From the NCBI GenBank assembly GCA_964421955.1, contig CAYQYU010000009.1:1-43456 (forward strand): 43,456 nt of DNA, in the 5' to 3' direction. The stretch is from an uncultured archaeon (GTDB lineage: Archaea; Nanohalarchaeota; Nanosalinia; Nanosalinales; Nanosalinaceae). The stretch's first letter is position 1, and every line of letters starts with the position of its first letter. The translations under genes and the position numbers were made by a program. The notes beneath the pieces are model-generated. The model had not been told where the DNA came from. It did not search any database and was given only the letters and a program-made list of their open reading frames with translations. Positions 4,724 to 43,290 of this stretch are shown in pieces.

Positions 4724-4766
4724 GAAAACCTCCGGTTTTCTGCTATTCCGAAAATCTGTGATTTTC
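4724..4766. repeat. Twin-hairpin element, copy in the atpC-atpF spacer
   Basis: GAAAACC-TCC-GGTTTTC, 9-nt spacer TGCTATTCC, GAAAATC-TGT-GATTTTC: two perfect 7-bp stems; on the sense strand the second hairpin contains GGAGGT just upstream of the atpF ATG. Confidence 0.8.
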
Positions 4767-4767
4767 A

Positions 4768-5748
4768 TCATGCCACCACCAGGTTTCTCCTGATTGTTTC
4801 CCTGTTTTGGATTCCTGTCTGCTTTGCCCTGATCAACATCCTGAGGTTCTTGACCTCGATTATCTTTGCAACGATGTATCCAAGTATCGATGTTACTCCA
4901 AGAGGTTCGGTGTGGAGCATCTTCAGCGCGTCCTTTAGACGCTGTGCCTCGAGTTCATGTTCAATATCCTCCAGCCTTTCGGCCTGGATGCCTCTATTTT
5001 CTCTGACGGTTCCAAGCGCTTCATCGATATCTCTCGATTCAAGCACTTTTTCGACAAGCGAGGATCCGTTCTTCGCGAGAAGGTAAGGCTCGATCTCGTC
5101 GCGCGAGAACCCGTACTTCTTCAGTCTCAGTGCTGTCCTCAAGTTCTCGTACTCCAGTTCTTCCCTTATGAACCTGCGGAACTGCGAGCTTCCAACCTCT
5201 GAGGCGAGCAGTTCAAGTTCCTCAAAGTAGGCCTTGTCCAGTGCTCTTTCTATCTCCGACAGTTTTTCCTTTCCTTCTAGATGGCCTCGGTAGTCTACCT
5301 CCGATCCCGGGAACTTTATCGATGCCAGTACCTCCTCAAAGTCTTTTTCCGCAAGTTCCTGGAGCGTTTCCGGATTGTACCTTCCAACGGGGATCATCAG
5401 GTCCTCGATATCTATATCTTCTCCTCCCCGCTTCCACCTCAGAAGTCTTTTCAGGCTCTGTATATCGTATCTTCTCAGGTAGGCGTCCATCACTTCCTGG
5501 AGGTTGTCTGGAGATGTCTCTCTCAGGTGTGAGAGCGTCCGGGAAAGATTGCGGTTGAGCGCGAGTTCCACTAGCTCTACCCCGTCGTACCGCGCCCCGA
5601 GTTCGTTGATATCGTCGCGGTAGTCTCCTTCCTCGAGGTTTCTTGCGATCTCGTTCGGCTGCATCTTCAGCAGCGACTCGTAGTCGCCTGAGTCGAGGAG
5701 TTTGGCCCGTTTCGCGCTGACACGGGCGTACATGTAGGGGTAGCCCAT
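4768..5748 (-). CDS. atpC: A-type ATP synthase subunit C
   Basis: YPYMYARVSAKRAKLL N-terminus and EVKNLRMLIRAK C-terminus; ATG at 5748 preferred over GTG at 5757. Confidence 0.94.
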   Translation of the reverse strand: MGYPYMYARVSAKRAKLLDSGDYESLLKMQPNEIARNLEEGDYRDDINELGARYDGVELVELALNRNLSRTLSHLRETSPDNLQEVMDAYLRRYDIQSLKRLLRWKRGGEDIDIEDLMIPVGRYNPETLQELAEKDFEEVLASIKFPGSEVDYRGHLEGKEKLSEIERALDKAYFEELELLASEVGSSQFRRFIREELEYENLRTALRLKKYGFSRDEIEPYLLAKNGSSLVEKVLESRDIDEALGTVRENRGIQAERLEDIEHELEAQRLKDALKMLHTEPLGVTSILGYIVAKIIEVKNLRMLIRAKQTGIQNRETIRRNLVVA

Positions 5749-5753
5749 CTTGA

Positions 5754-6296
5754 TCACTCGAAAAGTATCTCCGCAATCTGTTTGCGATAACGTTCCCTGT
5801 AGTTTTCCACGATTTTGTCAAAGCTGAAGTTCTGTCTCCGTTCGCCGTCCTCCGATACCAGAATTACTCCCTCAACCTCTGATTCCTTGAAGTCAAGTCC
5901 CTGGTTCTCGACAGCATCTCCGAATTCGCCAGACGCCTTTACAGTCCCGACTTCGAAGCCGGCCCGGTCGAGACAGCTCTCGATGAATTCTTCTCTTTCG
6001 TCCTCTCCAATTTTCTGGAGCCGGTTGCGGAAATTTTCAAATGCCTCGTCAAGCTTCTCCTGTTTCCTGTTCAGCCGGATCTGGCGAGCCTCCATCCTTG
6101 CATTCGAAAGTTCCTTCTTCCGGGTGGATTCTTTCTCCTCTTCGATCTCTCTTTCAGCGCTCTCCATAATCTGCTCTGCCTCCTTTTCGGCCTCGGAGAT
6201 TATTCGATCTGCCTCTTCCTCTGCTTCTTCTACAATCTCGTTCGCTTTTTCTTCAGCTTCTTCGAGTATTTCGTCCTGTACCTGTTCGAGTCCCAT
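5754..6296 (-). CDS. atpE: A-type ATP synthase subunit E
   Basis: MGLEQVQDEILEEA start, long coiled coil, GVILVSEDG...NFSFD globular C-terminus, ending ILFE. Confidence 0.93.
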   Translation of the reverse strand: MGLEQVQDEILEEAEEKANEIVEEAEEEADRIISEAEKEAEQIMESAEREIEEEKESTRKKELSNARMEARQIRLNRKQEKLDEAFENFRNRLQKIGEDEREEFIESCLDRAGFEVGTVKASGEFGDAVENQGLDFKESEVEGVILVSEDGERRQNFSFDKIVENYRERYRKQIAEILFE

Positions 6297-6332
6297 TTTG
6301 TATCACTTTTTGGTCTGAAAATGTGGGTTGGA

Positions 6333-6351
6333 CGGGCCCTTGACGGGCCCG
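6333..6351 (-). promoter_or_regulatory. GC-rich stem-loop in the atpK-atpE spacer
   Basis: CGGGCCC-N5-GGGCCCG perfect 7-bp stem about 11 nt after the atpK stop. Confidence 0.6.
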
Positions 6352-6362
6352 CTTCGGTTTTT

Positions 6363-6581
6363 CTATATGAATCCTGTCGCAATCAGCGCAACGACCAGAC
6401 CGAAAATTACGGCGGTCTCCGGGATAACTGTAAGGATTAGTGCCTGTCCGAAGAGCGAATCGTCTTCAGCCAGTGCACCGACTCCTGCCGCACCGATCTT
6501 TGCCTGAGCGTAACCGGTTGCGATCGCCGATAGACCGACCGCCAGTCCTGCACCAATTGCGGCCATTCCTTCTACTGCCAT
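6363..6581 (-). CDS. atpK: A-type ATP synthase proteolipid subunit K (c), single hairpin
   Basis: 72-aa hydrophobic hairpin with GxxxG repeats and ion-binding PET glutamate (IPETAVIFG); SD GAGGTGA upstream. Confidence 0.96.
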   Translation of the reverse strand: MAVEGMAAIGAGLAVGLSAIATGYAQAKIGAAGVGALAEDDSLFGQALILTVIPETAVIFGLVVALIATGFI

Positions 6582-6609
6582 TTGTGGATTTTCACCTCAA
6601 GTATCATTT

Positions 6610-8433
6610 TTATCTCATTCTCTGCCCAAAGGGCGAGTATTTTCTGCCTCCTCCCTGGAAAAACTTGGTGAAAAGCTCCACGTAGTGAAGCCGGATTCCC
6701 TGGAGGAAGCCTTCCATGATTTTGATGAATGTGTTGAAAGTATGTCCAATCATTAAAACAGATACGCCTCCGATAATTCCCGCGACAGATTCCATCGCGA
6801 AAAGTGGTTCGGCCATCGCATTCACTACCGCCGCAAGTGCGACTGCAGCGACCGCGACGCCGAATATCCGGAGGTAGGATAATATGTTTGAAAGCAGCGA
6901 CGGAATTTCCACCACCCCTTCTATACCCTCACCGAGGTATAGCATAACTATAGCGACTGCGAGCACCGGTACTCCAAATGAAGCACCGTAGAGATACCAG
7001 AACAGTGCCCCGATCTCGAGCATGATCCAGCTCCCCTTTTCGAGGAAAGCCTCCTTCAGACCGTGGTTGCTGTACTCGTTGTACGCGCCAAGTAAATAGC
7101 CGGCGTTGACGTGGAAAATTCCAAACAGGGCTGCGATCTGGAAAACAGCTCCCAGGTGCTCGGCCCTGTGGAAAAGGATCGGTATCTGCTCGAAAAAGTG
7201 TATGCCTGTAACCGCGGCAAGCTCCGAATGGTGGCCGAAAATCACGAAACCAAATGCGTCTCCGAACGCAAGCCCGAATATTATGGTCGCGACTGAAGCA
7301 TACATAAGCGACTTGAATATGTCTTTTGCGGCGGGGAACATCCTGTAGGCCGCGTAGAAAACAATCAGTGTAGTAATCCCGTACCCCGCGTCTCCGATCA
7401 TGAACCCGAACAGTAACGGGAACGTCAGCAGAAGCATAAATGAAGGGTCAAGTTCACTGTATTTTGGAACCGCGACCAGGTCAGTCAGTGACTCAAACGG
7501 TTTGACCGCACGGTTGTTCTCGTGCTTAACAGGAGGGTTCTCGCCTTCCTCTCTCTCAACATGTATTTTTCCACCAGTTCGTCTTTCCAGCTCCTCCTCC
7601 ATCTCGTCAAGCCGTGCGGACGGAACCCATCCTTCCGCGATGAAAGTTCTCTTTGTGGTTGCAAACTCGATTGGGGCCTCTGACTTCTCCACTTTCTCTG
7701 TAAGAAACTCCTCTGCTTCTTCAAGAGTTCCGCGCCACTCCTCCGCGACTTCCTCGAACTCAGTATTAATATCTTCAAGCTCGTCTTCAAGTTCCTCTCG
7801 CTTCCCCGAAGCAGCCTCAACTATATCTTCCGCCGTACCCGAAAACTCGGTCTCAACCCGGTTAAACTCGGACTTCTTTGTATCTCTCAACGCTCTCTCC
7901 ACTTCATCCGATTCGTCTTCGCGGTAGAAGACGACTTCAGCGGATCTGCCCTCGAAAACCTCAAAGCTTGAGACCGGAACCTGCTCCCGGAAATTTTCAA
8001 CATCTATCTCGCCTATGAAAACTTCCAGACTTCTCGTTCCCTTCAGATCGTCCACAGTTAGATCCGTTCCCATGAGCCTACGGAAAAACTCCTCCTGATC
8101 CTCAAGGCGGGAAAGACTTTCAGAAATCTCTGTCTTGCGTTCTTCCAGCCTCTCTACATTTGCGGCAACTCTCTCTAGAGTTCCTTCAAGACTATCGAGC
8201 GAGAACTCTGACCGCTGTACATCAACTTCGGGAATCTTCGAGAGGAGAGAGCGTACATCAACAAGCATCTCGGAAAGTTCTTCGGCCTCTTCAAAAGGTT
8301 CTCCTGTCTCAAGCTCACCTTCGTAGCTATCTATATCGATAAGCTGGAGATCATACAGCGTATCTATTACTTCCTGGAGGTGCTTCTTCGGTCCGGTTAC
8401 CGATACCTTTGTCATTTTAGCAGGTTTTACCAT
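6610..8433 (-). CDS. atpI: A-type ATP synthase subunit I (a)
   Basis: PKYSELDP, FGFMIGDAGYG, essential-Arg motif NILSYLRI, IRLHYVELFTKF; ATG at 8433 preferred. Confidence 0.96.
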   Translation of the reverse strand: MVKPAKMTKVSVTGPKKHLQEVIDTLYDLQLIDIDSYEGELETGEPFEEAEELSEMLVDVRSLLSKIPEVDVQRSEFSLDSLEGTLERVAANVERLEERKTEISESLSRLEDQEEFFRRLMGTDLTVDDLKGTRSLEVFIGEIDVENFREQVPVSSFEVFEGRSAEVVFYREDESDEVERALRDTKKSEFNRVETEFSGTAEDIVEAASGKREELEDELEDINTEFEEVAEEWRGTLEEAEEFLTEKVEKSEAPIEFATTKRTFIAEGWVPSARLDEMEEELERRTGGKIHVEREEGENPPVKHENNRAVKPFESLTDLVAVPKYSELDPSFMLLLTFPLLFGFMIGDAGYGITTLIVFYAAYRMFPAAKDIFKSLMYASVATIIFGLAFGDAFGFVIFGHHSELAAVTGIHFFEQIPILFHRAEHLGAVFQIAALFGIFHVNAGYLLGAYNEYSNHGLKEAFLEKGSWIMLEIGALFWYLYGASFGVPVLAVAIVMLYLGEGIEGVVEIPSLLSNILSYLRIFGVAVAAVALAAVVNAMAEPLFAMESVAGIIGGVSVLMIGHTFNTFIKIMEGFLQGIRLHYVELFTKFFQGGGRKYSPFGQRMR

Positions 8434-8448
8434 GTGAAATATCACTCT

Positions 8449-8766
8449 CTAGAGGAACTCTTCCGTAAATTTCTCCATTAGAAATTCTCCGGCCTCTTCC
8501 ATGTTTCCGGAGGCCGAGTTTCCAAGCTCTTCTGCACTTCTTTTTCCCTCTTCCATTATCTCTTTTCTCTCTTCCTCAACTTTTACCTGAAAATTCTCTA
8601 TCTCTTTTTGCCTCAACTGATCCGCTTCCTTCTTCGCATCGGATACAATTTGCTCTGCTTCGTCTCTTGCTTCTTCGAGAATTTCTTCACTTTTTTCTTC
8701 TGCTTCCTCGACAATAGAGTCGGCATCCTTTTCCGCTTTCTTTACCTCACTAACAACGCTAGACAT
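8449..8766 (-). CDS. atpH: A-type ATP synthase subunit H (G)
   Basis: 105-aa acidic coiled coil starting MSSVVSEVKKAEKDAD; first gene of the operon; the ORF-track extension to 8955 overlaps trm1 and is not credible. Confidence 0.88.
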   Translation of the reverse strand: MSSVVSEVKKAEKDADSIVEEAEEKSEEILEEARDEAEQIVSDAKKEADQLRQKEIENFQVKVEEERKEIMEEGKRSAEELGNSASGNMEEAGEFLMEKFTEEFL

Positions 8767-8799
8767 GGAGAATCTCCAGACTAGAGTAAATTTAGGCAA

Positions 8800-8880
8800 G
8801 TTTATAAACCCATTCCAGCGGCTCTCTCTGGTTCGCCCTAATAAAAGTTGTGGCCTACCACACAGGAACCGGTTTAAAAA
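8800..8880. promoter_or_regulatory. Divergent archaeal promoters (atp operon / trm1)
   Basis: Palindromic GTTTATAAAC at 8800-8809 upstream of atpH; TTTAAAAA at 8873-8880, about 22 nt before the trm1 ATG (leaderless geometry). Confidence 0.6.
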
Positions 8881-8902
8881 TATTTTGTAGACGACCAGAG
8901 TT

Positions 8903-9991
8903 ATGGAAGAGCGAAAATACCGCGTCTTTGTCCCGGAAGAAGATGAACCTGACAAGAGCTCCGAAGTATTTTACAACGAAGAGATGCTTACCAACCGGGA
9001 CATATCAACGAAAGCCGCAGAGATTTTCCTGGCTGATAAAGAGATCGAGAATCCCAGGATATGCGACGCACTTTCCGCATCGGGGATCCGGGGCTTCCGG
9101 TACTCGCCGCTCGGGAAAGTCTACCTCAACGATACAAATCCCGGGGCAATCGAAAGTATCGAACGCGGCCTGGAGGAAAACGGTATCGAGGCCGAGGTAT
9201 CAAACAAGGACGCAAACGTCTTTCTCTCGGAGCACAGGAACTTCTTCCACGTTATCGATGTAGATCCCTTTGGACCTTTCACCCGTTTCCTTGACTCTAC
9301 AGCGAGGGCAGCATCACATTCCAGTTTCGTGGGCCTTACAGCAACGGATAACGCGGCTCCTGCCGGGAGCTACCCCACCGTATGCAGGAGGCGGTACGGC
9401 TCGAAACCGATGAAGAATAGCTTCATGCACGAGACCGCATTGAGGATATACATCAAAACAGTTTTCGAAAACTTCGCCCGGTACGACAAATGCTTCGACC
9501 CCAGGCTATGCTTCCACGAGCGGCATTACTCCAGAGTCATGGGTCGTGTAACAGAGTCAAAACAGCGCACCAACAAGGCGCTGGAGAACATCGGATACCT
9601 TTCTTTCTGTCCCGAATGCCGGTGGAGAAAACTAGAGAGAAAGAAGAGCTGTCCTGAATGTGACAGTGAAACGAACATCGCCGGCCCTCTATGGACTGGA
9701 AAGTTTGCGGATCAGCGCTTCACTGGAGATGTGCTGGACCGGATTCCGGAGAACTGGGAAGACTCACGCAATCTTCTTGAACTGGTCCACGATGAGGCGG
9801 AGATTCTGACGCCTTTCTACGACATACATGAACTCGCATCAAACATGGAAATATCCTCGCCCAAGAGAAAACCCGTTATAGAGGCCATAGAGAACAAAGG
9901 ATATCCGATATCTCGAACCCACTTCTCTTCTACGGGTTTTAGAACAGACGCTCCAATACATGATATCAAGAGAATCATTCAGAGAGTATAG
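8903..9991 (+). CDS. trm1: tRNA (guanine26-N2)-dimethyltransferase
   Basis: VFYNEEMLTNRD, DALSASGIRGFR, DVDPFG, TATD, HETALRI and Zn-finger CPEC...CPEC, AGPLWTG. Confidence 0.95.
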   Translation: MEERKYRVFVPEEDEPDKSSEVFYNEEMLTNRDISTKAAEIFLADKEIENPRICDALSASGIRGFRYSPLGKVYLNDTNPGAIESIERGLEENGIEAEVSNKDANVFLSEHRNFFHVIDVDPFGPFTRFLDSTARAASHSSFVGLTATDNAAPAGSYPTVCRRRYGSKPMKNSFMHETALRIYIKTVFENFARYDKCFDPRLCFHERHYSRVMGRVTESKQRTNKALENIGYLSFCPECRWRKLERKKSCPECDSETNIAGPLWTGKFADQRFTGDVLDRIPENWEDSRNLLELVHDEAEILTPFYDIHELASNMEISSPKRKPVIEAIENKGYPISRTHFSSTGFRTDAPIHDIKRIIQRV

Positions 9992-10031
9992 ACCTTTTTA
10001 AGTCGGTTTAATCTTATAATTGGATAGGTTG

Positions 10032-10325
10032 ATGAGCCTTAGACAGAGAAACAATATTGGAGCAGCCGGAACGCGTAGAGAAAGCTATGAAATCGGAAAA
10101 GAGGATTTAGAGGAGCTCAGAGATCTGGGTATGGATGTAAAAACACCCTATGTACCTGTAAAGTCCATAAATGTACTGTATACCGAGAACGGTGGTCATC
10201 CTTCGGTATCATTAACAGCGGAAAGATACTTTCTCGGAGACCTTAAACTTTTCACGGCCTCAGGCAAAGATTTCGGCAACTGGGGAGAAGTCAGGAGAAC
10301 ACTCCAGCAGCTAGACAGGCATTAA
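10032..10325 (+). CDS. Hypothetical protein
   Basis: 97-aa ORF filling the trm1-tfb gap, AT-richer than neighbours; no family recognised. Confidence 0.6.
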   Translation: MSLRQRNNIGAAGTRRESYEIGKEDLEELRDLGMDVKTPYVPVKSINVLYTENGGHPSVSLTAERYFLGDLKLFTASGKDFGNWGEVRRTLQQLDRH

Positions 10326-10366
10326 AGACAGGAAATAATAGAAATAAGTAAAATGTGGAGGAGCAG

Positions 10367-11461
10367 TTAGTTGCTCTTTTCCTCAAGCTCTTCCTCGAGG
10401 CCAAGCTTCTCGGCGAGCTCCTTGTAGCGGTTCCTGATCGTGACCTCTGTTACGCCGACCACGTCGGCGACTTCACGCTGTGTTCTCTTCTCTCCTTCAA
10501 GTACCGCGGCGATGTAGAGTGCCGCAGCAGCAAGACCTGTAGGGCCTTTGCCCGAGAGAAGATCTTTCTCGCGGGCCTCCTTCAGGATCTGCCTGGCACG
10601 GGCCTGGACTTCGCCCGAGAGCTGGAGCTTTCCAGCGAACCTCGGGACATAGTCCTGCGGCTTTGCCGGCAGAATCCTGAGTCCGAGCTCTCTCGCAACG
10701 TAACGGTACGCGCGACCGATCTCTCGCTTCTCAATTCCCGAAGCCTCGGAAATCTCGTCGAGCGTTCTTGGAGTTCCCTGTTTTCTCGCGACAATGTAGA
10801 GCAGTGCGGAGATAATTGACTCCATTGAACGCCCTCTTACAAGACCTTTATCGACAGCCTTCTCGTATAGTCGGGCAACCTCCTCGTGTACACTTTCGGG
10901 AAGGTTGAGGTTGGAGACCATCGAGTTGAGCTCCGATAGTGCAAAGCCCAGGTTGCGGTCCTTGGACTTCGTCAAACGCTTGTGCCATTTTCTCAGGCGG
11001 TAGTACTGCGCTCTTTTGTTTCCAGAAACCTTGTAAAGCTCTCCGGAACCTTTTCCGATCTCGGTCGAGACACCCATGTCGTGCTTGGTGTAGGTAAGTG
11101 GCTGTCCTGCTCTCGCTTTCTTTTCACGTTCTTCCTCGTTGAAGGCCCTCCACTCCGCAGATTCGTCGATGCGGTTCTCGTCTATAATCATTCCACATTC
11201 GACACATACGAGCTGGCCTTCCGCAGAGTCTTCTTCGAAGCGCTGTGATCCACATTCTGAACATGTTAGAACTGTGTCTCCTTCAGATGCTTCCTCTCTC
11301 TTTACTTCGTAGCCTTCTCCCTGTGCGACTTTCTCGGATTCTTCCTGTTCTTCCTCAGATTTTTCGTCTTCTTCAGATTCCCATTCCTCGGGAACTGTGT
11401 ATGAATCGAATTCGCGACGCGGTACGTGCTCCTGTTCTGACATAGTATCATTTTCAGACAT
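10367..11461 (-). CDS. tfb: Transcription initiation factor IIB
   Basis: Zn ribbon CSECG...CVECG, B-reader EWRAF, two cyclin repeats (GRSMESI, GKGPTGLAAAALY, VTEVTIRNRYKE); start set at the ATG following SD GGGAGG. Confidence 0.97.
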   Translation of the reverse strand: MSENDTMSEQEHVPRREFDSYTVPEEWESEEDEKSEEEQEESEKVAQGEGYEVKREEASEGDTVLTCSECGSQRFEEDSAEGQLVCVECGMIIDENRIDESAEWRAFNEEEREKKARAGQPLTYTKHDMGVSTEIGKGSGELYKVSGNKRAQYYRLRKWHKRLTKSKDRNLGFALSELNSMVSNLNLPESVHEEVARLYEKAVDKGLVRGRSMESIISALLYIVARKQGTPRTLDEISEASGIEKREIGRAYRYVARELGLRILPAKPQDYVPRFAGKLQLSGEVQARARQILKEAREKDLLSGKGPTGLAAAALYIAAVLEGEKRTQREVADVVGVTEVTIRNRYKELAEKLGLEEELEEKSN

Positions 11462-11595
11462 AGAACGGATTCCCCTCCCGTAGACCATTCATTCTACCCT
11501 AACTTTTAAATAAGTTTCGGTGAGTTGGTTGATCTGGCAGTGACAACACTCGCAATCACAGATAATAAAATATCGGGTGCACAACTCATCCTATA

Positions 11596-12633
11596 ATGGG
11601 AGAGGAAAATATCCGTTTCAAAAGAGAGATTCTCGGCGTTGCGCTTCTCCTCTCGCTGGGCAGCATATGGGTGCTATACCCATTCCTTGATGCGATCATA
11701 CTGGCTGTGGCAGCCTCTTATCTCCTCAGGTTCGCGCACCAGAAACTCAACGGAAAGATCCAGAACGATCTCCTGTCCTCAATAATCATAACATCTAGCG
11801 TCCTGGGATTGCTCCTGATAGGAACCTACTTCTTCATAAACAACTTCGTGGACATAATAACCGGGCTAAACGCACTTACCGGGTCGCTTAGACAGGGCAT
11901 ACTAAACATTATAGATTTCTTCCATCTCTCGGCCAAGTTCGAGCAGAACGTGATTAATGTGGTCGACAGGTTCTCGAACATCGCCACCAGCTGGCTCATC
12001 GATATCTTCGCCCAGATTCCCGCAGTCTTCATCCAGATGGGTATCTTCACCGTAACTCTGATCTACCTCTACAGGGACGGTGCCAAGATAGAGAAGCAGG
12101 TGGATGAGGTGGTAGAAAACCTGCCCGAGAACGAGAGAAAGATAATCCGTTCGCTGGTGAGATCCATAGACTCCATCTTCCGGGGAGTATTCGTCACACA
12201 GTTCCTTGTCGCGCTGATAATAGGGCTAATCTCGGGAATCGGTTTCTATGCAATCTCTCTCATAACCAACCCTATGCCTCTTATACCTCTATGGGCCGTG
12301 CTGATATCGCTCGCCGCATTACTACCGCTGATCGCGGCATTCATGTTCTACGGACCCATCGGAATATACTATCTGATCACGGGCGAGCCACTCCAAGGAA
12401 CGCTTATAATTGGCTACGGAATACTTATGCTCAACATCCTCCCGGAGATGCTCCTACGGCCATACATCGGCTCGAAGCAGATGAACGAGCACCCGCTGAT
12501 AATATTCACGGGCTTCATCGCAGGACCGCTTACACTCGGGCTGAAAGGGCTCATACTCGGGCCGGTGCTCCTCATACTGACGAAGGAGTTCATCCTGAAC
12601 TATACCGATCTAGTTTCCGGCGAAACCGGGTAG
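11596..12633 (+). CDS. AI-2E family (UPF0118/PerM) transporter
   Basis: Multi-TM protein with LLRPYIG, HPLIIFTGFIAG and GLKGLILGPVL C-terminal signature. Confidence 0.9.
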   Translation: MGEENIRFKREILGVALLLSLGSIWVLYPFLDAIILAVAASYLLRFAHQKLNGKIQNDLLSSIIITSSVLGLLLIGTYFFINNFVDIITGLNALTGSLRQGILNIIDFFHLSAKFEQNVINVVDRFSNIATSWLIDIFAQIPAVFIQMGIFTVTLIYLYRDGAKIEKQVDEVVENLPENERKIIRSLVRSIDSIFRGVFVTQFLVALIIGLISGIGFYAISLITNPMPLIPLWAVLISLAALLPLIAAFMFYGPIGIYYLITGEPLQGTLIIGYGILMLNILPEMLLRPYIGSKQMNEHPLIIFTGFIAGPLTLGLKGLILGPVLLILTKEFILNYTDLVSGETG

Positions 12634-13057: not shown

Positions 13058-13148
13058 GTCCTCAGGACAGCATGCGAAAGTCAAAAAGCTTTGTTCGAGC
13101 ACCGTTTCATATTAAAAGCTGCCCAAAGCATCTTTTGGACGTGATACA

Positions 13149-36165: not shown

Positions 36166-36259
36166 GTGGAAAGCTGGGTAGCCCAGAGTTTTAACCGTCG
36201 CGTCGAAAATCGGAAAGTCTTTTAAAACTGGTAGAGCTATTCTGGATCAGTGGATATTG

Positions 36260-36559
36260 ATGGCTGAGAAAACAGTTGAGGAACTTGATCCTGCAGACGA
36301 CGATATTGAAATCACCGGAACAATCGCGGAGCTTCCGACACCTCGCGCGGTATCGACCCAGTACGGTCAGAAGAAGATAGTGACCTGCGTCTTCGAGGAC
36401 GATACCGGAAGCATCGACCTGACCCTGTGGGAGGAAGAGATCGAGGCCGTCGAGGAAGGCGACGAGGTCCACATCACCGGCGCTTACGTCCGGGAATGGG
36501 CCGACGACATCCAGCTAAACATCGGCCGTGACGGAAACATCAAAGTAGTGGAAGAGTAA
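36260..36559 (+). CDS. ssb: Single OB-fold single-stranded DNA-binding protein
   Basis: EDDTGSIDLTLW, GDEVHITGAYVREW, QLNIGRDG. Confidence 0.9.
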   Translation: MAEKTVEELDPADDDIEITGTIAELPTPRAVSTQYGQKKIVTCVFEDDTGSIDLTLWEEEIEAVEEGDEVHITGAYVREWADDIQLNIGRDGNIKVVEE

Positions 36560-36616
36560 AAGCCGTCGGCTTTCTACAACTATTTTAACTTTGCCTAGAG
36601 CTTTTTCTACCCAGGG

Positions 36617-37702
36617 ATGGGAATAGAGGACCGCATCGAGGAACTGGAAGAGAAGTTGCAGGAGACGCCGGTCAACAAGTCGACAGAAACGGAGCGCGGC
36701 AGATTAAAGGCGAGAATTGCGGAGCTGAAGGAGGAGAAGAAGCAGAAGCAGAAAGGCACCGGCGACACCTCAGGATACGCGGTTAAGAAGCACGGCGACG
36801 CGACTCTAGCACTTGTCGGTTTTCCCTCGGTAGGAAAGAGCACCCTCCTGAATGCGCTTACAAACGCGGAGAGCGAGACAGGCGAGTACGAGTTTACGAC
36901 GCTCGACGTCGAGCCCGGGATGCTGAAGTACAAGGGTGCGAACATCCAGATACTGGATGTCCCCGGATTAATAGGCGGTGCTGCCGAGGGCAAGGGAGAC
37001 GGCACACAGGTCCTCTCAGTCGTCAGGAACGCCGACCTCGTGCTCGTGCTTCTCGACCCAGAGGAGATGCGGTTCGACGAGATCACCGGGGAACTCTACA
37101 ACGCCGACATAAGACTGAACTCGTCGCCGCCCGACATTAAGGTCGAGAAGAAGAGCCGCGGCGGAATCAATATTTCATCGACAGTCGACCTCGATATAGA
37201 GGAAGAAACCATAAGACAGGTGATGTTCCAGCGCGGCTACACAAACGCGAACGTCGTAATCCGAGAGAATGTGGACATGGACCGCTTCATCGACGGGCTG
37301 ATGGACAACAGGAAGTACGTTCCCATGATCAGCGCGGTCAACAAGATCGACCAAGTTTCTAGCGAAAGACGCCAGGAGCTCGAGGTTTCTCACGATACTT
37401 TGATCTCTGCGGAGACCGGAGAAAATCTGGACGAGCTGAAGGACCTGATCTTCGAGAACCTCTCGCTTATGAGGATCTACATGAAGGAGAAAGGTGAGGA
37501 GCCCGACAGAGAAGACCCCCTGATACTGGAGGAGGGCTCAACTGTCGGAGATGCTCTCGACGAGCTGCCGGGCGACATGAGAGACAGGTTCAAGGCCGCC
37601 AGAGTCACAGGTGAAAGCTCAAAGTTCCCCGAGCAGAAGGTCGGGGTGGAGCACGAGCTGGTGGACGAAGACATCCTGGAACTTAATCTGCGGCATATCT
37701 AA
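36617..37702 (+). CDS. drg: DRG/OBG family GTPase with TGS domain
   Basis: TPVNKST, GFPSVGKST, YEFTT, DVPG, NKID; C-terminal QKVG..HELVDEDI. Confidence 0.95.
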   Translation: MGIEDRIEELEEKLQETPVNKSTETERGRLKARIAELKEEKKQKQKGTGDTSGYAVKKHGDATLALVGFPSVGKSTLLNALTNAESETGEYEFTTLDVEPGMLKYKGANIQILDVPGLIGGAAEGKGDGTQVLSVVRNADLVLVLLDPEEMRFDEITGELYNADIRLNSSPPDIKVEKKSRGGINISSTVDLDIEEETIRQVMFQRGYTNANVVIRENVDMDRFIDGLMDNRKYVPMISAVNKIDQVSSERRQELEVSHDTLISAETGENLDELKDLIFENLSLMRIYMKEKGEEPDREDPLILEEGSTVGDALDELPGDMRDRFKAARVTGESSKFPEQKVGVEHELVDEDILELNLRHI

Positions 37703-38154
37703 CTCCTGAAAAGATCGGAAACGTATTCTCTGGCTGCCTTCATAAACCTGCTAGAGTGTGGCTCCATCGATATCTGACGGTGGATTTCAACCAGGGCTTT
37801 ATCCCTGTCAGTCAGGTCTTCCGGGACACCCTCTCTGAAACGCATGGAAAGCTCCGAGGTATCAACAGTACTGAAGTGGGAGTGAATTAAAACATCGTCT
37901 CCAGGTACTCTGTAAACATGTCTACGGCCTGGAGGGCTCATCATCTCCTCCATCAAAGCGTAAGTAGGCCGATCCATAGACTCCTCAACTTCATACTCGA
38001 AGTCCTCTTCCTCAAGCAACTCCTCGTAGTCCTCTCTTCTTATCCCATTAAGCACTCTCATTCCAGGAATATCGGATAGATCATATCCTTCAAGCTCAAA
38101 TTCATCTACGTAATCTTCAAAATCACGGGAATCCCTTCCTACAGCGCCTGCCAT
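37699..38154 (-). CDS. Hypothetical protein
   Basis: 151-aa acidic ORF divergent from cdc6; stop overlaps the DRG stop. Confidence 0.65.
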   Translation of the reverse strand: MAGAVGRDSRDFEDYVDEFELEGYDLSDIPGMRVLNGIRREDYEELLEEEDFEYEVEESMDRPTYALMEEMMSPPGRRHVYRVPGDDVLIHSHFSTVDTSELSMRFREGVPEDLTDRDKALVEIHRQISMEPHSSRFMKAAREYVSDLFRS

Positions 38155-38220
38155 ATAGCCACATTTGAGTAATAAAATTCAAGTACCTTTCTCTCCTCCC
38201 TGTAGGCCGTTCTCTCCTGC

Positions 38221-38288
38221 TGGAACTACCGGAACTTGCGGAAAGCCATAATCTTGACTTTTAAACTAGCGGAATAATTGTTGTTCCG
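38221..38288 (+). promoter_or_regulatory. cdc6 promoter with (C/T)GGAA repeats and an inverted repeat
   Basis: TGGAACTAC-CGGAACTTG-CGGAAAG 9-bp periodicity; TATA TTTTAAAC at 38259-38266; CGGAA-N9-TTCCG over the start. Confidence 0.5.
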
Positions 38289-39304
38289 TGAGACGCCAGA
38301 ACTCGATCATAGAGGACGCCCGTGTGCTCCGGGAAGGTTTCATCCCGCAGAGAATGGTGCACAGGGACAACCAGATCCAGGAGATAAAGAGAAACCTGGA
38401 GCCTTTGCTGGAGTCAGATTCACCGAGGAACATGCTGCTCTACGGGCCGCCAGGAACTGGGAAGACGACAATGGCCTCGTATGTTATCGATGAGATGCAG
38501 AAGCATTCTTCGGAAGTAGTCTCCGGTGAAGTCAACTGCTGGCGGTATCCCTCCCGTTTCAAGGTTTACTACAACCTTCTCCAGGATCTCGGCGTCAACC
38601 TGATCCATAGAACCGGAACTCCCACGGACGAGCTGGTGGACAGGTTCAGGGAAAAAGCATCGAAGAGAAAGACCGTGGTCATACTCGACGAGGTCGACCA
38701 GATAGAGGAAGAGCGGATACTCTACGACTTTGCACGTGAAGATGTCGCGCTGATAATGATTGCAAACAAGGAGACCGCCCTCTACAATATTGACGACCGG
38801 ATCCGGTCATCGCTCGAAGGAACGCGCGAGATACATTTCCCAGCTTACTCCCAGGAAGAGCTGGTGGACATCCTGAAGGACAGGAGGAAGTGGGGGATGG
38901 AGACAGGAGTTATAGAGAACTCGCTGCTCCACAGGATCGCGAACAGGGCAGATGGAGACGCGAGAGTGGCGATCAACTCACTCAGGATCGCTGCAGAAGA
39001 GGCCGAGCACCAGGAGATGGAGGAGATTCCTCTGGAGGTGGTGAAGGACGCTCTTCCCGAGGCGGAGAAGCAGAACAAGTCGAAGTCCATAGACAAGCTG
39101 AACCCACACCAGAAGGTTCTATACGACGTTATAGAAGAGGAGGGCGAGATCAAGCCAGGTGAGCTGTATGAACGATACCGCGAGGAAGTTGATGAGCCCA
39201 AGGTCGAAAGGACGCTGAGAAAGTACCTCAACAAGATGGATCACTACCGCCTGATCGAGACAGAAGGTGAAGGCCGCTGGAGAAAGTACACGGTGGCGGA
39301 ATAA
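38288..39304 (+). CDS. cdc6: Cdc6/Orc1 family AAA+ protein
   Basis: DARVLREGFIP..HRD, GPPGTGKT, VNCW, ILDEVD, IAN, GDARVAI and short C-terminal wH; GTG start. Confidence 0.93.
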   Translation: MRRQNSIIEDARVLREGFIPQRMVHRDNQIQEIKRNLEPLLESDSPRNMLLYGPPGTGKTTMASYVIDEMQKHSSEVVSGEVNCWRYPSRFKVYYNLLQDLGVNLIHRTGTPTDELVDRFREKASKRKTVVILDEVDQIEEERILYDFAREDVALIMIANKETALYNIDDRIRSSLEGTREIHFPAYSQEELVDILKDRRKWGMETGVIENSLLHRIANRADGDARVAINSLRIAAEEAEHQEMEEIPLEVVKDALPEAEKQNKSKSIDKLNPHQKVLYDVIEEEGEIKPGELYERYREEVDEPKVERTLRKYLNKMDHYRLIETEGEGRWRKYTVAE

Positions 39305-39339
39305 ATATATAGTCCAGCATATACTTATCTTTTGGAAAA

Positions 39340-39714
39340 ATGCAGAGGAATTCTCAACTTAGGCCTAAAGACATTAAAGAGGACAAAATAGAGGAATACC
39401 GGAGAATCTTCCAGGAATATTTCAAGATAACCCGCAGCTCAATAGAAACCAGCCTGGACAGGGAAGGGATAAGAAAAGAGCTGGAACAGGAGTTAGACGA
39501 TACCTGTCCCGAAGACCTGTACATGATAGGCTACGCCCTTGGAGAAAGAAGGAACCAGCTAGAGGAGAAATTCAACAAGAACCTGGGTGTGGGCTACTGG
39601 AAAGTAAAAGAATTTCTCCCAGAATCTTATGGCGAGGAAGATGCAAGGATGGTAGGTCAGGCAATGCGAAGCTGGGAAGAGATCAGGGACATGATAGAAA
39701 GCATACCGGAATAA
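39340..39714 (+). CDS. Hypothetical protein
   Basis: 124-aa helical ORF downstream of cdc6. Confidence 0.65.
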   Translation: MQRNSQLRPKDIKEDKIEEYRRIFQEYFKITRSSIETSLDREGIRKELEQELDDTCPEDLYMIGYALGERRNQLEEKFNKNLGVGYWKVKEFLPESYGEEDARMVGQAMRSWEEIRDMIESIPE

Positions 39715-39763
39715 CGGAACCTCCTGGACTTCTTTATAAATCGGGTTCTGCGCATTACCCAGT

Positions 39764-39949
39764 ATGGACGGAAAAGTCAAGGACTGGCACAGATACCTCC
39801 CGGAGAAAGAACGCCAGGCAATTGAGAAAATGCAGATCTCCAGTTACCCTGAAGATAGCGCCTGTAACCGTATTTTAAGGTGTTTAAACCTGAAGCAGGC
39901 GAACAGTATAAAAGACTTAGTAGGTGGAGAGAATCATGATGGATACTGA
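39764..39949 (+). CDS. Small hypothetical protein
   Basis: 61 aa; TTTATAAA about 24 nt upstream of the ATG (leaderless geometry). Confidence 0.5.
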   Translation: MDGKVKDWHRYLPEKERQAIEKMQISSYPEDSACNRILRCLNLKQANSIKDLVGGENHDGY

Positions 39950-40058
39950 CTTCATCGATGAAGCCGGCCACCAGATACCGGTCGACTTCCGAGAAAGATC
40001 AGTGATTTCACGGCTGCTTATCCCTCTCTCAAAGTTCAGGGAAGCAGTCAGAGTTTAG
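39936..40058 (+). CDS. Small hypothetical protein (40 aa, absent from the ORF track)
   Basis: MMDTDFIDEAGHQIPVDFRERSVISRLLIPLSKFREAVRV; preceded by GGTGGAG and overlapping the previous stop. Confidence 0.4.
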   Translation: MMDTDFIDEAGHQIPVDFRERSVISRLLIPLSKFREAVRV

Positions 40059-40075
40059 TGACCTACCCGCCCATT

Positions 40076-40531
40076 TTATTCTCCACCTAGCTCTTCCAGA
40101 AGTTCCCGCTGTTCCTTATCGATACTCTCCTGCTTTCTCTCAACACTTAGCACCACCAGCTCGTCTTCCTCAAAATCATCGATCCTGTCCTTCCCGACGT
40201 AGCGGGCTAGCTGACCTGTGTTTCTCGCAGGACAGATGATAAAGTCGAGCGCGTAGTCACGATCAGAGCCGCCAAAACGCAGCTTCACGGTGTCCCTCCT
40301 CGCTCTCAGATGGTTTTTTACAGCTCTAGTGGCACGGTCATCAAAGCTGTCGAACGCGTGGACCTGCCAGGAGCTCCCATCAGGATGGTAGCGTTCGATC
40401 GATACAGTGTAGAACTCGCACCTATCGCCGTACTTGCCGTGGCAGAAATCCGTAACCTTTTCCGCCAGACCGTCGAGATCGCCATTAAAGGCCGTGTAAA
40501 GGGCGTTTTTCTCCTCGTTTTCGTGGATCAT
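40076..40531 (-). CDS. Hypothetical protein
   Basis: 151-aa ORF downstream of rps8e. Confidence 0.7.
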   Translation of the reverse strand: MIHENEEKNALYTAFNGDLDGLAEKVTDFCHGKYGDRCEFYTVSIERYHPDGSSWQVHAFDSFDDRATRAVKNHLRARRDTVKLRFGGSDRDYALDFIICPARNTGQLARYVGKDRIDDFEEDELVVLSVERKQESIDKEQRELLEELGGE

Positions 40532-40566
40532 ATAGAAAGAATGGAGCCAGAGAGGTAAAAAGCTAG

Positions 40567-40944
40567 CTACTCCTCGAGTAGTCTGGCGTTTACAACGCCG
40601 TCCTGACCCGGTCTCGACGTGATGACTGCCTCGCCTTCCTCTGTATCGATGACCGTACCCTTCGTGAGAAGTGATCTCCGGACATAGTTCGGGTTGGCCG
40701 GGTTGTCCTCCACAGATTCAATTTCAACCTCCTCGACCTCTCCGTCGATCGCGAGGTTGACCGTCCTGGACCTGCGAACGACATTCTTCGAGTTACCGCC
40801 CCGGGTGTCTTTCTTCTCGATCCTCTGTTCTCCAAGTTCCGGTGCGGAAAATTCGGATCCTAGATCGTACTTCCGGGACTTCCTGTAAGGCCGGGTTTTT
40901 CCTCCTGTCTTCTTCGTATCGGAGTTACGGTGCCAGATTGCCAT
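40567..40944 (-). CDS. rps8e: 30S ribosomal protein S8e
   Basis: KKTGGK, TRGGNSK, NPANPNYVRRSLLTKG, TSRPGQDGVVNA. Confidence 0.97.
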   Translation of the reverse strand: MAIWHRNSDTKKTGGKTRPYRKSRKYDLGSEFSAPELGEQRIEKKDTRGGNSKNVVRRSRTVNLAIDGEVEEVEIESVEDNPANPNYVRRSLLTKGTVIDTEEGEAVITSRPGQDGVVNARLLEE

Positions 40945-41063
40945 GTCTTCTTTCCCGGTCTGAAACTTTATAAAAAGTCGTATAGTCGTGGCTTGAGGAA
41001 AGGGTTCTCAGTAGGTTTATATATCTTGTTCAAGCATTTCGAGGATACAGGTGTCTTAAGTCT

Positions 41064-41297
41064 ATGTCAGATAACGACGACGGTACACGACCCCTGGACG
41101 TTCTTGACAGAGCTAAAGGAGATCGAGTTATCGCACAACTAAAAGATGGATCAACAGTAACAGGAAAACTCAGAGCTTTCGACCTCCACCTCAACATGTG
41201 GCTGGAAAATGCCTCGGTAAAGAAGGAGGAGGGCAAAACAGACTACGGGAAGCTTCTGGTCAGGGGCGATAACGTTATCGTCGTAAGCCCGGAGTGA
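41064..41297 (+). CDS. Sm-like archaeal protein (Lsm/SmAP1)
   Basis: RPLDVL, Sm1 GKLRAFDLHLN, Sm2 VRGDNV; canonical linkage to rpl37e. Confidence 0.96.
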   Translation: MSDNDDGTRPLDVLDRAKGDRVIAQLKDGSTVTGKLRAFDLHLNMWLENASVKKEEGKTDYGKLLVRGDNVIVVSPE

Positions 41298-41305
41298 TCC
41301 AATGC

Positions 41306-41349
41306 GAAGATCAAAAATCTTCAGCATAGCCGAGACACGAAGGTGTTTC
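41306..41349. repeat. Twin-hairpin element, copy in the Lsm-rpl37e spacer
   Basis: GAAGAT-CAAAA-ATCTTC, 9-nt spacer AGCATAGCC, GAGACAC-GAAG-GTGTTTC; the SD AGGTG lies in hairpin 2; 19/26 identity to the first part of the sense-strand atpC-atpF copy. Confidence 0.75.
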
Positions 41350-41354
41350 AACTA

Positions 41355-41516
41355 ATGGCAAGTGAAAAAGGAACGGGAAACCAGAAAACACACGGCAAGT
41401 GCAGGAGATGTGGAAAGAAAGCGTACCATCTCCGGAAAGGAGAATGTGCCGCGTGCGGCTTCGGAAAGACATCGAAGCGCAAAGACTTCAACAAGGCCAA
41501 GCCGCGGAAGGATTGA
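41355..41516 (+). CDS. rpl37e: 50S ribosomal protein L37e (53 aa, absent from the ORF track)
   Basis: Hand translation [53 protein letters not shown]; KTH..CRRCG...YH.....CAACGFG signature, directly after Lsm. Confidence 0.95.
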
Positions 41517-41528
41517 AAGGTAGTTTAA

Positions 41529-41744
41529 ATGGAGTTCTCGGTAATTGTTCTAACAGATGCCGGAGATTTTCTCCTTGAGAACGAGAGCCAGCTCTCAAGA
41601 GAGGAGAAAGGTGTGGAGATTGAAGCCGCGTATATCTTCAACGAGGAAGAACTCGCCCAGGAGATACAGGCAGACACCGTTTTCGTACCTTACTCCTCGA
41701 TAGAAAACATCCAGTACGGCGACTTCGACCACGAAACTGTATAA
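41529..41744 (+). CDS. Small acidic beta-rich hypothetical protein
   Basis: 71 aa, 12 nt after rpl37e with AGGT upstream. Confidence 0.65.
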   Translation: MEFSVIVLTDAGDFLLENESQLSREEKGVEIEAAYIFNEEELAQEIQADTVFVPYSSIENIQYGDFDHETV

Positions 41745-41773
41745 AAACCTCCATCCTTCTACACAAAATATCA

Positions 41774-41878
41774 GCTAACGTGCGTTCGCCTTTGGCGAAT
41801 GCTCTCTTTGCTCAAACTTCCGCAACCTCTTTGAGGTTGCTGGTCACAGAAGACAGTAAGGTCTTCGAGTTAGCAAGG
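41774..41878. ncRNA. Structured multi-hairpin element immediately 5' of tRNA-Lys (contains a twin-hairpin copy in reverse orientation)
   Basis: Hairpins 41782-41802 (GCGTTCGCC-TTT-GGCGAATGC), 41822-41840 (GCAACCTC-TTT-GAGGTTGC), 41849-41866 (GAAGAC-N6-GTCTTC); possible closing stem GCTAAC/GTTAGC. Confidence 0.55.
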
Positions 41879-41881
41879 TTT

Positions 41882-42020
41882 GGGCCCATAGCTCAGTCTG
41901 GCAGAGCACCGGCCTTTTAGGACCTCAAGTTCTCCTCCGGAGAACGAGGACCAAGAAGCGAGTGAAAGCGAGCTTCGCAAAGACAGCCGGGCGTCGCGGG
42001 TTCAAATCCCGTTGGGCCCA
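41882..42020 (+). tRNA. tRNA-Lys(UUU) with 65-nt intron (41920-41984) at 37/38; CCA not encoded
   Basis: Acceptor GGGCCCA/TGGGCCC, D arm GCTC..GAGC, anticodon stem CCGGC/GCCGG with CT-TTT-A, T loop TTCAAAT; BHB central helix CTTT/AAAG. Confidence 0.95.
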
Positions 42021-42026
42021 ACTGTT

Positions 42027-42437
42027 ATGCTAGAGGAAGTTTACTACAGGCTCAGGCTGAACAGGAAGGATTTCCAGGTTATCTTGGGTCTCTTCCTGAT
42101 CGATATCGCCCTTACTATCTACGGCATCAGCTCGGGTGCGGGCTCGGAAATGTCTCCTTTCTTCCGATCTTTTACAGACACCTTGACTCTCATGGTAGCT
42201 GGTGGCCTGGTCTATATGGGCATACTTTCTGCGCTGAACTATTTTCTGGAAGGCGCAGTCAGGACAGTTCTCGCGGCCGCGGCCATCGGGATGCATATCG
42301 GCGGCATCTTCTCCTGGGTATGGCTTTTTGCGGGATTCGAGACAGGGCATTCCGCGCTATATCTCAATTACATGCTGATAGCAGCCTCGACAGCCGGCGC
42401 TTACAGTTTCCTGGAATCGAGAGACTGGATTTACTGA
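42027..42437 (+). CDS. Membrane protein, DUF5658-like
   Basis: Four TM segments; DIALTIYGISSGAGSEMSPF resembles the D..T..G...G..E.NP motif; ATG 6 nt after the tRNA 3' end. Confidence 0.65.
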   Translation: MLEEVYYRLRLNRKDFQVILGLFLIDIALTIYGISSGAGSEMSPFFRSFTDTLTLMVAGGLVYMGILSALNYFLEGAVRTVLAAAAIGMHIGGIFSWVWLFAGFETGHSALYLNYMLIAASTAGAYSFLESRDWIY

Positions 42438-42588
42438 CAACCGCTTTTATTCCTGGAGGCCATAAATTCATGTTCGACAGCATAAGCAGACAGAACCTAA
42501 CAGTCCATCCTTAACTGGGGAATGGTCCACTGAAAGAGTCTGTAGAGAGCCACATACGTGTGGAACTGAAAGAGCGGGGATAGCCGAG

Positions 42589-43083
42589 CTACACACTTCT
42601 CTTGATTATCCGGGTTATCCGGGTCAGCTTGGCAGCATTTCCCGCGGTCGAACTTATCTCTGTTATGTGAAGTATACCTCTCCGGAAGACGGGCAGATCA
42701 GCCAGCGCTGGCGCAACCCTCGCAAGCCTCACCTCCTGGACTATAGAGAACAGCGGGATCACCAGCAGTATGTCCAGCCAGTGATCATCGACAAATTTCT
42801 CGTGGTTGGTCGATAACCGGTAGGAGACTCCAAGCCTTGCAACGAAGTATCCAATCAGAGCCCAGTTAGCCCATGTGATCCATGTCGCCATCCGGGGGGT
42901 CACTGTAAGGAAGAACTCGAAGACTATAATAAAGCCTATCAGGAGCAGGACGAAAGGCATTATGTGATCAAGCAAAATCTTTATTTGGTGGGCCCTGTGC
43001 CTCGAGAAACGGCCCTCTATCGACTCCTCTATGTCTTCAATATCCTCCGCGTAGTTTTCCAGGCTCACATCCGTTAATTCCAA
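42589..43083 (-). CDS. Stand-alone voltage-sensor-like (S1-S4) membrane protein without pore domain
   Basis: Two TM helices, then KFVDDHWLDILLVIP (S3 NWLD-like) and periodic basic segments VRLARV / KLTRITRIIKR; no selectivity filter; TTG start after GGAG. Confidence 0.65.
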   Translation of the reverse strand: MELTDVSLENYAEDIEDIEESIEGRFSRHRAHQIKILLDHIMPFVLLLIGFIIVFEFFLTVTPRMATWITWANWALIGYFVARLGVSYRLSTNHEKFVDDHWLDILLVIPLFSIVQEVRLARVAPALADLPVFRRGILHITEISSTAGNAAKLTRITRIIKRSV

Positions 43084-43155
43084 TCTCCAGAATAAAAGTC
43101 CGGCGTATCCAATGCATTAAAAATACTTACAGTATCACTCCAATTTAGACCTACA

Positions 43156-43290
43156 GGACCGGTAGCTTAGCCAGGTTAGAGCGCCACGCTGATAGACTCG
43201 AAACCTTTCAGGTTTCTGCGACCTGAAATCTCGGTTTCACCGAGGAATTCAGGAACGTGGAGATCCCCAGTTCAAATCTGGGCCGGTCCA
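43156..43290 (+). tRNA. tRNA-Ile(GAU) with 60-nt intron (43195-43254) at 37/38; CCA not encoded
   Basis: Acceptor GGACCGG/CCGGTCC, anticodon stem CCACG/CGTGG with CT-GAT-A, T loop TTCAAAT; BHB central helix CTGA/TCAG. Confidence 0.95.

Follow-up and report, generated by a model that had tools for sequence, protein, structure and literature searches.

Miniature inverted-repeat transposable elements (MITEs) are non-autonomous elements with inverted ends, a parent insertion sequence (IS) with the same ends and a target-site duplication, and the palindromic elements of Rickettsia sit inside protein genes, in frame and free of stop codons, where they become part of the protein. Repetitive extragenic palindromes and bacterial interspersed mosaic elements (REP/BIME) are short extragenic palindromes of 20–40 nt that occur in many copies, often paired, between unidirectional or convergent genes, and carry a GTAG/CGTC tag (PMC3733652). 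The palindromic GC clusters of yeast mitochondria are short, mobile hairpins that lack their own transposase, turn over fast, and give new elements by merging and nesting (PMC4478555). In the Thermoproteales, near-identical introns occur across tRNAs and point to recent gain by an unknown mechanism (Fujishima et al. 2010, as cited in PMC4090602). Here we describe short hairpin repeats built on GAA...TTC stems in a nanohaloarchaeal genome (G000; 922,649 bp or 0.92 Mb in 27 contigs, 98.8% complete), starting from four twin-hairpin elements on its contig C9 (CAYQYU010000009.1), the 43,456-nt stretch that we call the window. On balance, the evidence leans towards all four belonging to a large, phylum-wide family of short modular palindromic hairpin repeats that spreads by copy-and-paste.

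The initial annotation, made from the window alone, had proposed that the four elements share one twin-hairpin layout, and this layout can be read in the sequence at every one of them. The four hairpin strings, each present a single time, are located as stated at 4724–4740 (+), 41332–41349 (−), 43200–43216 (+) and 41849–41866 (−), and none of 100 shuffles matches any of them. The first lies in the atpC-atpF spacer between − strand genes and the second in the Lsm-rpl37e spacer between + strand genes, while the remaining two belong to the intron of tRNA-Ile-GAU and the leader of tRNA-Lys-UUU, respectively. Read along the transcript, the atpC-atpF cassette consists of hairpin A (4750–4766, − strand; 7-bp stem, 3-nt loop) and hairpin B (4724–4740, − strand), whose loop and 3′ arm carry GGAGG on the transcribed (−) strand, about 14 nt before the atpF ATG (4716–4714). 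The Lsm-rpl37e cassette consists of hairpin A (41306–41322, + strand) and hairpin B (41332–41349, + strand), with AAGGTG in the loop and 3′ arm and one sense-strand G-U pair. Similarity was compared with 2000 shuffles in which every stem, loop and spacer was preserved. The atp and Lsm elements score 30, where the null mean is 13.6 (p 0.0005), and the Ile and Lys elements 29, where it is 13.0 (p 0.0005), which upholds the likeness claimed within each pair. Across the two pairs similarity is weak (atp-Ile p 0.02, the other three comparisons p 0.13–0.74). The compensatory stem change reported between the atp and Lsm elements is real, and the G-U pair of the Lsm hairpin on the sense strand corresponds to A-C on the other strand. 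Copies do lie in both orientations relative to transcription, as had been stated, in a ratio of 3:1: those in atp, Lsm and the Lys leader are alike, and only the one in the Ile intron is inverted.

The unit of the wider family is a hairpin with a GAA...TTC stem of 6–10 bp. Units stand singly, are twinned, or are nested as a 75-nt three-way element, giving a size range of 17–80 nt, and the spacer of the twins, 5–12 nt long, usually has TG at its start and CA at its end. GAA-type stems form the commonest class of perfect hairpins in the genome, which holds 1668 perfect hairpins against 1229–1321 in five triplet shuffles, and 68 perfect twins against 15–25 (about 3.5-fold). Perfect stems were used here because a census tolerating G-U pairs proved too noisy (4951 against about 4300 shuffled); a reversed genome is no control for palindromes. 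The strict GAA...TTC hairpins are very unevenly placed, with 0.07 per kb in coding sequence, 0.56 in co-directional spacers, 0.52 in convergent spacers and 0.09 in divergent ones, compared with 3.5–4.3 in tRNA flanks (up to 120 nt) and 1.7 inside tRNA genes, that is, in introns. Enrichment over coding DNA ranges from 8-fold in co-directional spacers to 60-fold in tRNA flanks, and divergent promoter regions stay near the coding level. In the phylum, 55 of 70 genomes contain a stem variant with GAAAAYC, a 3–5-nt loop and GRTTTTC; its copy number runs from 0 to 24 and differs widely within genera, and the reversed pattern, used as a control, gives one match in each of three genomes. On contig C3, twins with a leader-type spacer are located between operon genes of the ribosomal-protein cluster; they bridge the atp/Lsm and Ile/Lys pairs. 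The dispersed family that had been predicted from four copies is thus represented by many more, both in this genome and in its relatives.

A...G or C...T flanks border 52 of 143 perfect hairpins. In co-directional spacers the orientation of this signature is unbiased (12 sense, 11 antisense), and it marks the position in a twin rather than the strand. G-U pairs number 27 on the sense and 19 on the antisense strand, which is not significant, and neither strand-asymmetry test separates an RNA-level from a DNA-level role. A reading of the short T runs in the 3′ arm as terminators is unlikely because copies lie inside introns and operons.

Compared with MITEs, the nanohaloarchaeal repeats are likewise non-autonomous, variable in copy number and prone to nesting, and the composite three-way element, alone among the family's forms, has terminal inverted repeats in the shape of its outer stem; they differ in being much shorter (17–80 nt), and neither an arbitrary target-site duplication nor a parent IS sharing their ends was seen. 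With the Rickettsia elements they share a palindromic repeat that is compatible with an open, stop-free frame, which here is a separate mini-frame of 12–34 codons between two genes, presumably translated, rather than a part of a protein. The resemblance to REP/BIME extends to size, high copy number, pairing, placement, transcribed location and number varying between strains (PMC3733652), and the excess of twins, like the preference for co-directional and convergent over divergent spacers reported above, is the distribution expected of REPs. Unlike REP/BIME, the repeats have A/T-rich GAA...TTC stems, an archaeal (DPANN) host and no RAYT (REP-associated tyrosine transposase) gene, none of the listed copies carries a GTAG/CGTC tetranucleotide, and copies also occur in tRNA introns and leaders and come with start, Shine-Dalgarno and stop signals. 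Yeast GC clusters offer a likeness in merging and nesting without a transposase, intergenic location and a small genome; they are GC-rich and mitochondrial, and their description there contains no link to tRNA introns or operon coupling (PMC4478555). As in the Thermoproteales, near-identical introns interrupt tRNA genes for different amino acids (PMC4090602); the differences are that the intron modules are also found outside introns, in leaders and operon spacers, that introns occupy the canonical position, and that the splicing endonuclease (EndA) is encoded by a single short gene. The present case extends transposing tRNA introns to a DPANN lineage and to sequences outside introns. A search of full-text articles, without their supplements, returned no paper on repeats or intron families in Nanohaloarchaeota.

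Presence and absence vary among relatives at every orthologous site examined, as the empty-site comparison proposed with the four elements had anticipated. In the case of atpC-atpF, 18 of 20 loci have no hairpin spacer, and the site is filled only in the window genome (two hairpins) and in the relative G013, where the first and last of four hairpins resemble those of the window. The Lsm-rpl37e spacer measures 5–19 nt in all 13 close relatives and 57 nt in the window genome; 14 more distant Lsm loci, at which gene order is unchecked, contain no GAA...TTC twin. All relatives identified by the Lsm protein carry the label Nanohaloarchaea/Nanohalarchaeota. At the S5-L30 junction, 20 of 22 loci have 0–9 nt, the window genome has 100 nt with three hairpins, and G016 has 57 nt with two, of which the start-proximal one is shared with the window genome. 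The Lsm spacer itself recurs on contig C6 (33146–33202), where it is flanked by two unrelated genes, Nop10 and one that is PAC2-like. The two copies have the same length of 57 nt and agree at 50 of 61 nt, with 29 of 30 in the first half, and the second stem differs by an A-U to U-A exchange; the Nop10 junction lacks the cassette in all 21 relatives. A 25–26-nt hairpin is found in four identical copies in the genome. Three outcomes had been named as telling against a repeat family, namely no further copies, similarity at the level of shuffles and no presence/absence variation, and the data depart from all of them.

The largest form of the repeat was recognized through the tRNA-Lys leader. Copies of this leader were gathered from other genomes with a 19-nt pattern, and 11 copies from 10 genomes, including that of the window, were aligned. 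The alignment folds as a three-way element in which an outer stem encloses two hairpins. Its cells are paired in 85.8% of cases compared with 26–54% when the partners are slid, and 10 cells are changed on both sides, a number reached by none of 500 shuffles; in the outer stem, 78% of cells are paired, with CG/GC and GC/AU exchanges. The window's composite element (41806–41883, + strand) abuts position +1 of tRNA-Lys and has its outer stem around hairpin A (41822–41840), an 8-nt spacer and hairpin B (41849–41866). The same long leader contains an extra hairpin at 41782–41802 (+ strand) with G-U on the sense strand. A covariance model of the 11-copy alignment (R1) was run unfiltered on both strands of the window, with E-values that are rough. 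The top score, 74.6 bits, belongs to the Lys leader, the window's own copy being among the training rows. Next come, in this order, two − strand matches, the Ile intron (43184–43254) with 19.8 bits (E 0.003) and the atp spacer with 14.3 bits (E 0.14), while the Lsm spacer gives a single-hairpin match only (9.1 bits, E 6).

Within the phylum, R1 matches 27 of 70 genomes at 1–7 copies each in non-orthologous places, for example upstream of tRNA-Pro, downstream of tRNA-Phe or away from any predicted tRNA, and it also matches the S5-L30 spacer on contig C3 (25.7 bits). Among the 12 copies within 200 nt of a tRNA, eight are on the same strand and four on the opposite strand. Weaker members grade into ordinary GAA...TTC twins, including the operon spacer C3 67557–67629. 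In the Lys leader of the window, as in G056, the twin hairpin is nested in the loop of the tRNA-abutting hairpin; at this site the hairpin is simple in two other relatives, and the nearest relative has neither form. In G051 the composite element is found inside a 135-nt tRNA-Ile intron, at a site where its probable congener G016 and the window genome have an unrelated intron of 60–61 nt. Upstream of tRNA-Lys (window 41744–41881), the sole TATA-like box is located about 137 nt away, at the stop codon of the preceding open reading frame (ORF), which implies a long structured leader; in the nearest relative the box is about 50 nt upstream and hairpins are absent.

Both tRNA genes of the window, tRNA-Lys-UUU (41882–42020, + strand; Rfam, 55 bits) and tRNA-Ile-GAU (43156–43290, + strand; 53.9 bits), have a long insert at the anticodon loop in their Rfam matches. 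Metagenome contigs of relatives at 85% likeness or more lack these inserts, skipping exactly 65 nt in Lys and 60 nt in Ile, and thereby set the limits of the tRNA-Lys intron with its two hairpins (41920–41984, + strand) and of the tRNA-Ile intron (43194–43253, + strand; hairpin 1 at 43200–43216, hairpin 2 at about 43223–43252). Among relatives the Lys intron is present at 7 of 13 loci and the Ile intron at 4 of 9. With introns allowed, the ARAGORN prediction for the genome comprises 39 tRNAs, of which 28 have introns (42–138 nt), although some of these predictions may be wrong; intron-bearing tRNA genes number 15 of 39 and 4 of 38 in published nanohaloarchaeal genomes (PMC10266531). A strict family hairpin occurs in 14 of the 28 predicted introns, whereas 500 shuffles gave 0.32 such introns on average and never more than 3. 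By reading, most introns share a 3′ module made of a flanked hairpin and, behind it, a tail able to pair with the anticodon loop, to which it is complementary in the examples examined. The first hairpin and the spacer are common to the introns of Lys-UUU, Lys-CUU, Arg-UCG, Thr-UGU, Gln-UUG and Glu-UUC, and the Arg-UCG intron has the first hairpin module twice in tandem. Identity by BLAST within this intron family is 94–95% over 35–52 nt, and the window's Lys intron matches a tRNA-Arg intron at 35 of 37 nt. Similar introns across amino acids, intron-less alleles in relatives and junctions fitted to each tRNA, all seen here, are features of transposing families of bulge-helix-bulge (splice-motif) tRNA introns. 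The proposal that the hairpins seed or expand tRNA introns holds in part, in that half of the predicted introns carry the class and the element of the Lys leader is found in a tRNA-Ile intron of another genus that is longer than its counterparts (135 against 60–61 nt).

Several further observations concern the tRNA genes. The Lys-UUU intron family is spread over the window (41920–41984) and contigs C1, C3, C15, C17 and C19. A hairpin of one subtype, 25–26 nt long, ends exactly at tRNA position −1 in 8 of the 39 tRNAs, and has the same placement for tRNA-Lys in three other genomes. On contig C1 (103713–103795), the last 24 nt of tRNA-Lys-CUU are directly repeated on either side of a 37-nt insert with a GAAAATC-type hairpin, an arrangement resembling a scar left at the 3′ end of the tRNA by integration or duplication. 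The introns of tRNA-Trp (C2 49960–50136) and tRNA-Met (C6 15456–15630) contain UGAUGA- and CUGA-like boxes, recognized by eye, and in the Met intron a GAAAATC hairpin is situated between them.

The copies in operon junctions are distinguished by an open reading frame. On the − strand of the atpC-atpF spacer, a frame of 17 codons (4718–4771) starts with an ATG that overlaps the atpC stop and ends with a stop 1 nt before the atpF start (offsets −4/−1). A second 17-codon frame, in the Lsm-rpl37e spacer (41302–41355, + strand), starts 4 nt after the Lsm stop (offsets +4/+1), and its TAA overlaps the rpl37e ATG (41355–41357). Both stay open through the two hairpins and end with a TAA that touches the downstream start. 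A census of all 251 co-directional spacers of 35–160 nt, with expectations from shuffles, found a bridging ATG frame in 9 of 13 spacers with at least two perfect hairpins (1.2 expected), compared with 6 of 41 with one hairpin (3.1 expected) and 15 of 197 that are hairpin-free (17.4 expected). By eye, the G013 (atp) and G016 (S5-L30) cassettes are equally open. Common stems have, by inspection, no stop triplet in any frame, and the second, start-proximal hairpin adds a new Shine-Dalgarno sequence, located in its loop in at least 10 cassettes. Several frames read the first hairpin in the same phase and yield the motif ENQRFSG, which suggests common descent of the copies rather than a functional peptide. 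The left end of the cassette often retains an older Shine-Dalgarno sequence and ATG that partly overlap the upstream stop; examples are at window 41290–41304 and, on contig C3, at L114 6478–6492 and 6934–6948. In haloarchaea, translational coupling occurs at overlapping stop/start pairs, and we infer that the mini-frames are translated and maintain coupling by termination-reinitiation. As far as searches show, the combination of start, frame, Shine-Dalgarno and stop is apparently undescribed for any archaeal repeat. For annotation, mini-frames and intron-rich tRNAs are easily missed or mis-called. The phylum-wide range, the membership of the tRNA-Lys intron in a dispersed intron family and the construction of the operon copies as short open frames all go beyond the initial annotation.

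With some reserve, we favor the reading that these sequences form a REP-like family of palindromic repeats that multiplies by copy-and-paste at the DNA level and whose surviving copies have been shaped to be harmless. As a non-autonomous mobile palindrome, the proposed element is borne out in being dispersed and variable, and it is this distribution that suggests mobility. Copies would survive almost only in transcribed non-coding DNA, namely tRNA introns, pre-tRNA leaders and trailers, and operon junctions, with selection retaining only those that do no harm. Within RNAs they would fold on themselves and so spare the fold of the tRNA or the splice motif. In operon junctions the cassette would supply an ATG by the upstream stop, a stop-free frame, a Shine-Dalgarno sequence in the second loop and a stop codon of its own touching the downstream start, such that translational coupling could continue. 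More tentatively, the repeat may be a transcript-adapted palindromic mobile element, in which junction copies keep termination-reinitiation, hairpin modules give rise to new tRNA introns and leaders and enlarge or replace existing ones, and neither a HUH transposase nor TnpB is needed. If so, hairpin modules would be a direct and observable source of archaeal tRNA introns. A compact symbiont genome of about 1 Mb tolerates dozens of these repeats, likely since each copy is built to be harmless. The same modules occur in introns, beside tRNA genes and between protein genes, and, combined with empty and filled sites among genera and one intron-nested case, they provide a concrete system for testing tRNA intron gain.

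A number of points weigh against spread by copy-and-paste. No match to the Y1/HUH domain (PF01797) was found in the 98.8%-complete genome, in a search that did match the control genomes, nor was there a match to TnpB (PF07282). The sole transposase match, a DDE fragment at the end of contig C17, was considered as a mobilizer and set aside, its flanks and ends being, by eye, unlike the hairpins. There is no clean target-site duplication at the copies; the ATG or AATG at both ends of a cassette could be either a start-codon target duplication of 3–4 nt or just the former start and the new one. The comparisons of empty and filled sites are between relatives rather than within one population, and the genomes of relatives are not independent of one another. 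That the 75-nt element is nearly identical in different genera could be due to constraint instead of transfer, and the exact placement of hairpins at tRNA position −1 looks functional or strongly targeted.

The last of these points leads to a plausible alternative, to which we assign a clearly lower probability, that the cassettes serve above all as functional RNA modules within polycistronic transcripts and have spread by local duplication. Hairpin A would cap the upstream 3′ end, the spacer would be a nuclease site, and hairpin B would cap the downstream RNA and present the Shine-Dalgarno sequence; hairpins abutting tRNAs would aid RNase P and RNase Z in high salt, and the likeness between copies would stem from a shared binding protein. 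This agrees with the confinement of hairpins to transcribed spacers and their scarcity in divergent promoter regions, with the recurrent Shine-Dalgarno sequence in the start-proximal loop, with the −1 placement here and in relatives, and with stem sequences conserved phylum-wide. Three of the four window copies and 8 of the 12 tRNA-adjacent R1 copies have the sense strand, and a candidate for RNase P RNA is present. However, most orthologous junctions in relatives work without a cassette, within the ribosomal-protein operon a cassette is present at only about 5 of the 22 junctions, and the copy number varies from 0 to 24 among genomes, also within genera. The remaining 4 of the 12 tRNA-adjacent copies and the copy in the Ile intron are antisense, and the sense strand has no clear excess of G-U pairs. 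A selfish repeat can be co-opted, and in this sense the functional modules and the copy-and-paste family are compatible.

Three other explanations appear considerably less likely. The 75-nt element could be the gene of a small structured non-coding RNA that rides on tRNA transcripts until the splicing endonuclease, RNase P or RNase Z releases it, with no relation to the simpler hairpins. We consider this improbable. In its favor, both fold and sequence are maintained across the 27 of 70 genomes that have the element, the outer stem shows compensatory changes, the element is usually next to or inside tRNA genes, and a UGAUGA motif precedes it. A box C/D small RNA has a C box near its 5′ end and a D box (CUGA) near its 3′ end, which form a kink-turn; no CUGA follows the composite element, no partner strand or box was found for the UGAUGA and flanking GA motifs, Rfam gives no match even at E up to 1, and a genome-wide search for complements of the conserved spacer produced no target that would speak for a guide RNA. 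The element is absent from 43 of the 70 genomes, its 1–7 copies occupy non-orthologous places, 4 of 12 near tRNAs are on the opposite strand, and the weaker members grade into the simpler twins (C3 67557–67629). Less probable still is the parallel drawn in the initial annotation, in which a HUH tyrosine transposase (RAYT/TnpA) would act on an element of REP/BIME type or derived from IS200/IS605. Short and often paired extragenic palindromes between unidirectional or convergent genes do recall REPs (PMC3733652), but in addition to the missing PF01797 and PF07282 matches, the flanks are A...G or C...T with no GTAG/CGTC tag, and the stems are A/T-rich rather than G/C-rich, so that this part of the annotation found no support. 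Independent hairpins of no common origin, alike through base composition (an acidic proteome, rich in GAA/GAG) and general usefulness, would fit the weak similarity between the two pairs and the fact that GAA and its complement are common words in the genome; we regard this as just as remote, considering that both pairs exceed structure-preserving shuffles, that long near-identical copies occur at unrelated loci and across genera, that the reversed-pattern control is near zero, and that twins are about 3.5-fold over shuffles.

Default settings of ARAGORN return no tRNA in 1–43456 despite the two intron-bearing tRNA genes, and nothing in the window beyond these two tRNAs reaches or approaches a family threshold in Rfam 15. 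Gene calls are those of our own codon-usage caller, adopted since a first ORF caller mislabeled spacers of the ribosomal-protein operon as coding. At the start of contig C8 (1–277), a 111-nt tandem repeat combines family hairpins with a piece resembling a tRNA 3′ half; such repeats stand at the ends of several contigs, including the end of C18, and probably break the assembly. The RNase P RNA candidate, on contig C12 (6170–6475), is a full-length match to the archaeal model with 49 bits, against an Rfam threshold of 84, and a GAAGATC hairpin is located directly upstream of it.

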